Positions 7,740 to 7,867 of a stretch of 52,438 nt of DNA are shown in pieces (position 1 is the first letter of the stretch; each line of letters opens with the position of its first letter). Location: positions 1-52,438 of the forward strand of contig CARBBL010000001.1 in assembly GCA_948943595.1 (NCBI GenBank). Reading direction: 5' to 3'. Origin of the DNA: an uncultured Lachnospiraceae bacterium. Lineage in GTDB: Bacteria; Bacillota; Clostridia; Lachnospirales; Lachnospiraceae. Both the position numbers and the translations under genes were made by a program. The notes under the pieces were generated by a model that did no database searches, was not told the DNA's origin, and was given only the letters and a program-made list of their open reading frames with translations.

Positions 7740-7867
7740 GTAACAGTTCAGCCATGCAAAATTGAATATACAAAATGCTGTTGGGAGCTTGCTCGCATAA
7801 GGCATTTTGTATATTCGATTTTATAGGGCGGACGCCTGACATGAAATGGGTATGGCTGAATAGTAAC
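7740..7867 (+). mobile_element. MITE-like 128-bp element, copy 1 (imperfect ~18-bp TIRs gtaacagttcagccat / atggctgaatagtaac, internal long hairpin)
   Basis: It is nearly identical (about 5 mismatches) to the reverse complement of 21458-21585. Confidence 0.7.

Follow-up and report, generated by a model that had tools for sequence, protein, structure and literature searches.

Two copies of a 128-nt element in the window (the whole 52,438-nt stretch of DNA analyzed, from an uncultured Lachnospiraceae bacterium) most probably represent a non-autonomous MITE moved by a single-ORF, ISBst12-group transposase of the IS66 family, a reading to which we assign a probability of roughly 0.85. The element is present in multiple copies with exact boundaries, is flanked by 8-bp duplications, and inserts between genes irrespective of orientation. 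By sequence comparison, its termini and the length of its target duplication are those of autonomous ISBst12-type elements. In the mechanism proposed here, the MITE, which carries no gene of its own, would move through a DDE transposase encoded elsewhere in the cell. The enzyme would bind the two 18-nt terminal inverted repeats (TIRs), GTAAC[A/T][G/A]TTCAGCCAT[G/A]C, and would insert the element into A+T-rich intergenic DNA by an 8-bp staggered cut, the repair of which would leave 8-bp direct repeats. The window copies would be independent recent insertions of one young sub-family, and the partner element would have ends of the GTAAC[A/T][G/A]TTCAGCCATGC type. The four-stem interior may be kept for the persistence or mobility of the element as a folded single strand, either RNA or DNA, rather than for a host function.

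Boundaries and context of the two window copies

Self-comparison of the window placed the 128-nt copies at 7740–7867 (plus strand) and 21458–21585 (minus strand), mutually inverted and 13.6 kb apart, in agreement with an earlier sequence-only reading of the same DNA. The copies are 98% complementary and differ at three element positions (49, C/T; 91, G/T; 98, T/C) rather than at the approximately five that had been estimated. Homology between them extends to the outer edge of the TIRs and no further, the flanking sequences being unrelated. The TIRs, correctly described as imperfect 18-bp repeats, are GTAACAGTTCAGCCATGC and GTTACTATTCAGCCATAC (the latter read inward on the other strand), which are identical at 14/18 positions in the window copies and at up to 18/18 in sister sub-families. 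Each terminal 18-mer is confined to the two MITE copies within the window, against a chance expectation of 0.02–0.03. The coding capacity of the element is nil beyond overlapping chance ORFs of 44 to 45 aa. Direct repeats of 8 bp, overlooked in the sequence-only reading, adjoin both copies as target-site duplications (TSDs). Features of the two copies are as follows.

7740–7867, plus strand: MITE copy 1, 128 nt, 1 difference from the sub-family consensus
7732–7739, plus strand: left TSD of copy 1 (GAATTTGT); the same 8-mer adjoins both element ends
7868–7875, plus strand: right TSD of copy 1 (GAATTTGT), 8/8 match to the left TSD
7740–7757, plus strand: left TIR, GTAACAGTTCAGCCATGC, 10–16/18 identity to ISBst12-group IS termini
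7850–7867, plus strand: right TIR, GTATGGCTGAATAGTAAC (read inward, GTTACTATTCAGCCATAC), inverted match to the left TIR
21458–21585, minus strand: MITE copy 2, 128 nt, 2 differences from the sub-family consensus
21586–21593, minus strand: flanking 8-mer of copy 2 on the left-TIR side, TSD (ATGTAATA on the minus strand)
21450–21457, minus strand: right-TIR-side TSD of copy 2, reading ATGTGATA on the minus strand and matching ATGTAATA at 7/8 positions
21399–21427, minus strand: promoter-like TTGATA-17-TACAAT of the receiver gene, downstream of copy 2 (context only)

Gene calls agreed with the context assigned from sequence alone, namely copy 1 upstream of parA and copy 2 between genes for a CheY-like regulator and an MCP. 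Copy 1 lies 126 nt upstream of parA (ParA, 6832–7614, minus strand). Copy 2 separates the end of the MCP gene (21693–23531, minus strand) from the promoter-like site of a receiver gene, which encodes a single-domain response regulator (Response_reg protein, 20971–21360, minus strand), and occupies the same site in every metagenomic contig encoding an identical receiver protein. No empty orthologous site was found for either window copy among the orthologues available, which were either 100% or at most 57% identical: the element was present in all contigs with identical neighboring genes, and beyond these the receiver gene had no homologue closer than 57% identity.

Copy 1 also sits at the parA-proximal end of a region of approximately 2.2 kb upstream of parA (7615–9809), in which several repeat families are densely packed and no ORF reaches 63 aa. 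A second intergenic family in the window consists of ~65-nt units with CCCATCTGCC.GC...GCAGGC and GTGAAAT...ATTTCAC palindromes, located as follows.

9076–9158, 12051–12133, 28598–28652, 33678–33728, 38653–38751, 44349–44594 and 47743–47870: ~65-nt repeat family

Three to four of these units are arranged in tandem with a period of 65 at 44349–44594. A 141-nt dispersed repeat (93% identity) occupies 1046–1186 and 11931–12071, and an 80-nt tandem duplication in perfect register (99% identity) is found at the right edge (52267–52426).

Copy number, sub-families, and insertion sites

When one genome per species was scanned for two terminal cores spaced 77 to 107 nt apart, 68 loci were recovered, as compared to about 4 expected by chance. 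The search for further copies that the sequence-only reading had proposed led to a mouse gut Lachnospiraceae MAG, MGBC139783, which contains at least 13 near-identical 128-nt copies (94–100% identity), each at a different site. Most are flanked by a perfect 8-bp TSD (e.g., ACTTTATG, ATATCTAC, TATACTGT, CATGTTCT, ATTTGTAT, and AAGGGTTG). MGBC139783 also carries the other intergenic repeat families of the window, consistent with a related organism; the ~65-nt family is among them, and at locus L037 the MITE is inserted inside one ~65-nt unit. Eleven 128-nt copies exhibited a mean pairwise identity of 97.9%, which, together with the one and two substitutions that separate the window copies from consensus, is indicative of a young sub-family. 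In one MGBC139783 copy (L016, 7400–7545), a partial repeat of the left terminus, 10 nt long (GTAACAGTTT), intervenes between the TSD TACAATTT and the element proper.

Gene conversion or segmental duplication within this genome, raised earlier as an alternative to transposition, would account for the near-identity of two window copies that differ at three positions and lie 13.6 kb apart. However, the repeated unit is bounded exactly by the TIRs, the copies are inverted in unrelated flanks with a different 8-bp TSD each, and the same 128-nt unit recurs at many unrelated sites in another genome. This alternative is not needed to explain the data, and we regard it as extremely improbable.

Diverged sub-families with the same ends were found in Lachnospiraceae, Faecalimonas, Acetatifactor, Eubacteriales, and similar MAGs. 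They span 95 to 208 nt and are spread over about 20 MAGs of gut Firmicutes and at least 120 metagenome contigs; the metagenome scan for the 18-mer returned at least 120 loci, mostly on human-gut contigs. The commonest human-gut sub-family is ~188 nt long (L208, 823–1015; L116, L121, L125, L170, L195, L206, and L225) and has an extra hairpin (AAGTTGCCGG...CCGGCAGCTT) between P2, a small internal hairpin described below, and the right terminus. The 128-nt form of the window looks like a version without this module. In metagenomes, short contigs that belong to the same strain as the window often end inside the element, as is usual where an assembly meets a repeat.

Checking for target duplications in a larger copy set, as had also been suggested, showed 8-bp duplications to be both present and statistically specific: flanking 8-mers matched at 7/8 or more positions in 35 of 78 distinct insertions, versus 0 of 78 in each of two shifted-flank controls. 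The duplicated targets are 74% A+T, with an A-rich first half and a T-rich second half. Insertions were intergenic in 73 of 79 cases, and orientation relative to the upstream gene was evenly divided (15 same, 14 opposite).

Several other classes of match were set aside. Termini without a partner in the metagenome loci were decayed or composite MITEs or chance matches in coding sequence, and concealed no IS. A candidate long element with GTAAGC ends (L064, 225–2371) was rejected as lying inside two ordinary genes. A scan of viral contigs for a lone terminus gave 16 matches, nearly all of them chance matches inside genes, and blastn against plasmid and phage collections returned nothing relevant. 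Genome-scan matches in Acidobacteria and Terriglobia belong to another palindromic repeat that has only an 11-mer of the search pattern in common with the MITE. This unrelated repeat of ~130 nt, TTCAGCCATGCC...GGCATGGCTGAA preceded by CGTCAGGGCATGGC and followed by GCCATGCCCTGACG, was observed in the Acidobacteria MAG SRR5457059_bin.137 and in Terriglobia MAGs (L011, L018, L019, L024, L027, L030, L034, and others), with at least 20 copies in one MAG. Finally, TIR–TIR mini-palindromes of 29 to 32 nt (GTAACAGTTCAGCCATGC(GG)CTGAACTGTTAC; L187, 1362–1390; L216, 254–285; L230, 3314–3342) lack an 8-bp TSD, and these ~30-nt forms are probably remnants of internal deletion.

Termini shared with the ISBst12 group of IS66 elements

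The combination of GTAA-type ends and an 8-bp duplication suggested the IS66 family. The element ends, GTAACAGTTCAGCC and GTTACTATTCAGCC, agree with the termini of autonomous IS66 elements of the single-ORF (ISBst12) group, which were delimited here in viral contigs, in Geobacillus and Clostridium, and in an archaeon. Full-length IS with matching TIRs, which the sequence-only reading had proposed to look for, thus exist, in other hosts. Across 10 delimited ISBst12-type elements, identity to the window termini was 10 to 16 of 18 positions, the best match (16/18) being the right end (IRR) of L214/L235, GTAACTATTCAGCCATGC. All of the autonomous single-ORF IS66 elements compared start with GT[A/T]ACT[A/G][T/C]TCAG and have 8-bp TSDs, which are perfect in L094, L097, L101, L103, L104, L105, L110, L235, and L236.

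On the Geobacillus plasmid pHTA426, a gene for a 485-aa "IS66-like" transposase lies inside GTAACTATTCAGCCCGTAC...GTACTGGGCTGAATAGATAC, with AACTCGTC adjoining on either side. This copy is an "IS66-like element ISGka4 family" member, single-ORF like ISBst12 and ISDge4. Viral-contig loci were retrieved with a profile of homologues of the pHTA426 transposase, and the best inverted-repeat pair bracketing the gene was taken as the ends; the elements so delimited (L097, L101, L103, L104, L105/L106, and L110) have ends starting GTAACTATTCAG or GTAACTGTTCAG and perfect 8-bp repeats. An element on a Clostridium estertheticum plasmid has the ends GTTACTGCTCAGCCATTG and GTTACTACTCACGCATTC and a 7/8 duplication. 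ISDge4, a published member of the ISBst12 group, has ends GTAACTGCTCAGCA and GTGACTACTCAGCA with an 8-bp direct repeat, and these termini agree with the MITE ends (PMC12898284).

Among the 120 metagenome matches listed, L214 is the sole locus that encodes a transposase of this type (518 aa; DDE_Tnp_IS66 [Pfam, 3e-43], zf-IS66, and DUF6444). Its right end, GTAACTATTCAGCCATGC, fits the 18-nt consensus of the MITE and agrees with each window terminus at 16/18 positions. A 91%-identical relative occurs twice in one large assembly (L235 and L236), with ends starting GTAACTATTCAGCCAT and the perfect TSDs AGAACTTT and TATAACTT. L214 and L235 adjoin NAC and Fpo/Mrp-type genes, and these archaeal-looking neighbors indicate that they are not the partner element of the host. 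In L240, another relative of L214, the transposase ORF ends ...TCC CAT GGC TGA inside the right end, so that the CAGCCATG block of the MITE ends corresponds to the last codons and stop of such a gene.

The canonical three-ORF IS66 end starts GTAAGCGTCCGG (PMC12888890). It matches the window termini at only 8 to 10 of 18 positions, so the affinity is specifically with the single-ORF group. The MITE and the ISBst12 group share GTAAC or GTTAC followed by ..TTCAG or CTCAG(CC), together with the 8-bp target duplication, and the imperfect inverted ends of the MITE, like those of ISDge4, differ between left and right at positions 3, 6, and 7. In contrast to ISBst12-group elements of about 1.6 to 1.7 kb, the MITE is 128 nt long and has no transposase, and its palindromic, multi-hairpin interior shows no relation to the sub-terminal sequences of the autonomous elements examined. 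Taken on sequence, its ends and target duplication can be assigned with high confidence to the IS66/ISBst12-group type.

No IS66-type transposase gene was detected by tblastn in the 52-kb window, nor, save for L214, in ~1.4 Mb of sequence around MITE copies in Lachnospiraceae MAGs and gut metagenomes. Protein-database searches and C-terminus screening for the cognate element of the host recovered autonomous elements with matching ends in other hosts only. We infer that a host transposase acting on these ends is, or recently was, present. The earlier proposal of recent mobilization by a transposase supplied in trans is therefore upheld by the additional copies, their TSDs, and the existence of IS with matching termini, but the transposase was not found in the host sequence searched, and the enzyme is assigned at the level of family only.

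That cognate enzyme being absent from the host sequence searched is also what would be expected if the MITE were moved by another transposase family that duplicates 8 bp, e.g., IS6, ISL3, IS256, or IS1595, since TSDs of this length are not unique to IS66. Against such a family, the first 12 to 16 nt of the termini match every ISBst12-type element delimited (10–16/18 overall), including the CAGCCATG block, and the MITE ends are unlike the termini generally given for IS26 (GGCACTGTTGCAAA) and ISL3 (GGCTCTTT...). Mobilization by one of these families is accordingly very unlikely, and an ISBst12-group enzyme is preferred.

Folded interior and significance of the family

The long interior hairpin described from sequence alone was reproduced by folding. 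Its components in copy 1 are as follows.

7758–7822, plus strand: hairpin P1 (arms 7758–7779 and 7801–7822), from predicted fold and covariation
7783–7794, plus strand: P1 cap GGGAGCTTGCTC (CUUG-type loop), conserved
7826–7837, plus strand: small GC hairpin P2 (GGGC GGAC GCCT), nearly invariant in 33 sequences

The RNA minimum free energy of the strand reading GTAACAG...GGGAGCTTGCTC... was −54.6 / −57.1 kcal/mol, with a z score of about −9, as compared to −40 / −45 for the other strand; the greater stability of ~13 kcal/mol on the GTAACAG strand is due to G-U pairs. The difference between the copies at position 98 falls in P2, where it exchanges G-U for G-C.

The interior was aligned over the common first 110 nt of 33 distinct members, without gaps. 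Near-invariant parts of this alignment are the termini, the apical GTGGGAGCTTGCTCAC, which forms a stem capped by G(CUUG)C, and the small hairpin ATAGGGCGGACGCCC, while the 23-bp stem between the invariant parts is completely different among sub-families. P1 nonetheless remains paired: 94.9% of alignment cells were paired, versus 77% in column shuffles and 37 to 54% in slid registers, and 18 of 23 pairs were changed on both sides. The ~188-nt relatives have an added, covarying third hairpin (P3), giving four stems with the termini as the outer stem; the 128-nt form of the window is without it and has three. On one strand, G-U wobbles outnumber A-C mismatches 47 to 9, an excess which traces to a few inherited positions, so that the strand asymmetry is suggestive only. 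The simplest reading of the covariation is selection on a folded single strand, whether RNA or DNA.

Such a pattern could also arise if the element were primarily a structured small RNA gene or motif like Clostridiales-1, present in many copies as a useful RNA and with its inverted ends serving as a closing helix. The strong covariation of P1 and P3, the invariant loops with their G(CUUG)C cap, the wobble excess, and the more stable fold of one strand are all in keeping with this view, as is a permissive Rfam search in which copy 1 aligned over the whole Clostridiales-1 model (RF01699) at 30.5 bits (E = 3e-5). However, this score is below the gathering score of 48; no match was obtained at the gathering threshold anywhere in the window or, for RF01699, in 20 loci with longer relatives, and copy 2 was unreported at E ≤ 0.001. 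Likewise, most copies bear 8-bp target duplications, which denote insertion at the DNA level, the sequence of the supposed closing helix is that of IS66/ISBst12 termini, and the wobble excess has the limited origin noted above. The window copies also have no consistent upstream promoter and no downstream terminator, which, together with the unbiased orientation relative to neighboring genes, speaks against both a conventional sRNA gene and a cis-acting RNA that requires a set orientation. We therefore consider an RNA gene improbable as a replacement for the MITE reading, with which a role for RNA is compatible as an added layer. Spurious matches to miRNA precursors in the permissive search were due to the long hairpin.

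Weinberg et al. (2010, PMC2864571) described Clostridiales-1 as a large structure of four stems that is highly abundant in DNA from the human gut. It shares with the MITE a multi-copy occurrence in gut Clostridiales, a covarying four-stem layout, and the first-hairpin cap GAGCUUGCUC. In contrast to the MITE, its representatives have AGAUGCC...GGCAUCA ends without GTAAC-type termini, often followed by a terminator-like hairpin, and TTCAGCCAUGC was absent from the RF01699 seed file, save for one chance match of a flank to the 9-mer. Membership of RF01699 was rejected on the sub-gathering score, the differing seed ends, and the unmatched longer relatives. The seed itself lists Clostridiales-1 in multiple copies in single genomes, e.g., on several NZ_ABOU02... 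contigs (PMC2864571, supplementary file 76).

Compensatory change maintains the interior module across sub-families whose stems have completely diverged. A tentative and rather unlikely extension is that IS66-type ends are the vehicle for a functional folded cargo, a module with invariant loops (the G(CUUG)C-capped hairpin and the AUAGGGCGGACGCCC hairpin). Were this so, the module might have a role as RNA, e.g., in stabilizing transcripts, as a protein-binding sRNA, or as a target of RNase III or RNase E, or alternatively might be a single-stranded DNA structure required by ISBst12-type enzymes for transposition. The element would then be a mobile structured-RNA or structured-DNA cassette spreading regulatory hairpins in gut Lachnospiraceae genomes, and the long-unexplained Clostridiales-1 motif might be suggested to be the same sort of element.

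As a non-autonomous MITE, the element is of an ordinary kind. Bacterial MITEs such as Correia elements (Neisseria), RUP (Streptococcus pneumoniae), ERIC/IRU (enterobacteria), and Nezha (cyanobacteria) are non-coding, multi-copy, intergenic sequences of about 100 to 200 nt with TIRs and a long hairpin, and are mobilized in trans. The present element resembles them in size, non-coding TIR structure, intergenic copies, and hairpin. Correia, RUP, ERIC, and Nezha-type MITEs depend on different transposases, and several of them duplicate TA or another short target; the present element differs from them in its partner IS family and in the length of its duplication. In the literature searched, no MITE was tied to IS66/ISBst12 and this terminal sequence was not mentioned; the family is common in gut Lachnospiraceae and has apparently gone undescribed.

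The MITE accounts for recurrent contig breaks and for variation in intergenic length in gut Lachnospiraceae assemblies, and the covariation of its interior illustrates how, through covariation alone, a mobile DNA repeat can come to resemble a structured RNA gene, which bears on orphan gut-metagenome motifs such as Clostridiales-1. A very abundant gut-metagenome repeat is now linked to a little-studied, single-ORF branch of IS66. The transposition mechanism of this branch is poorly characterized, and a natural 128-nt substrate whose ends are defined would be convenient for studying it.
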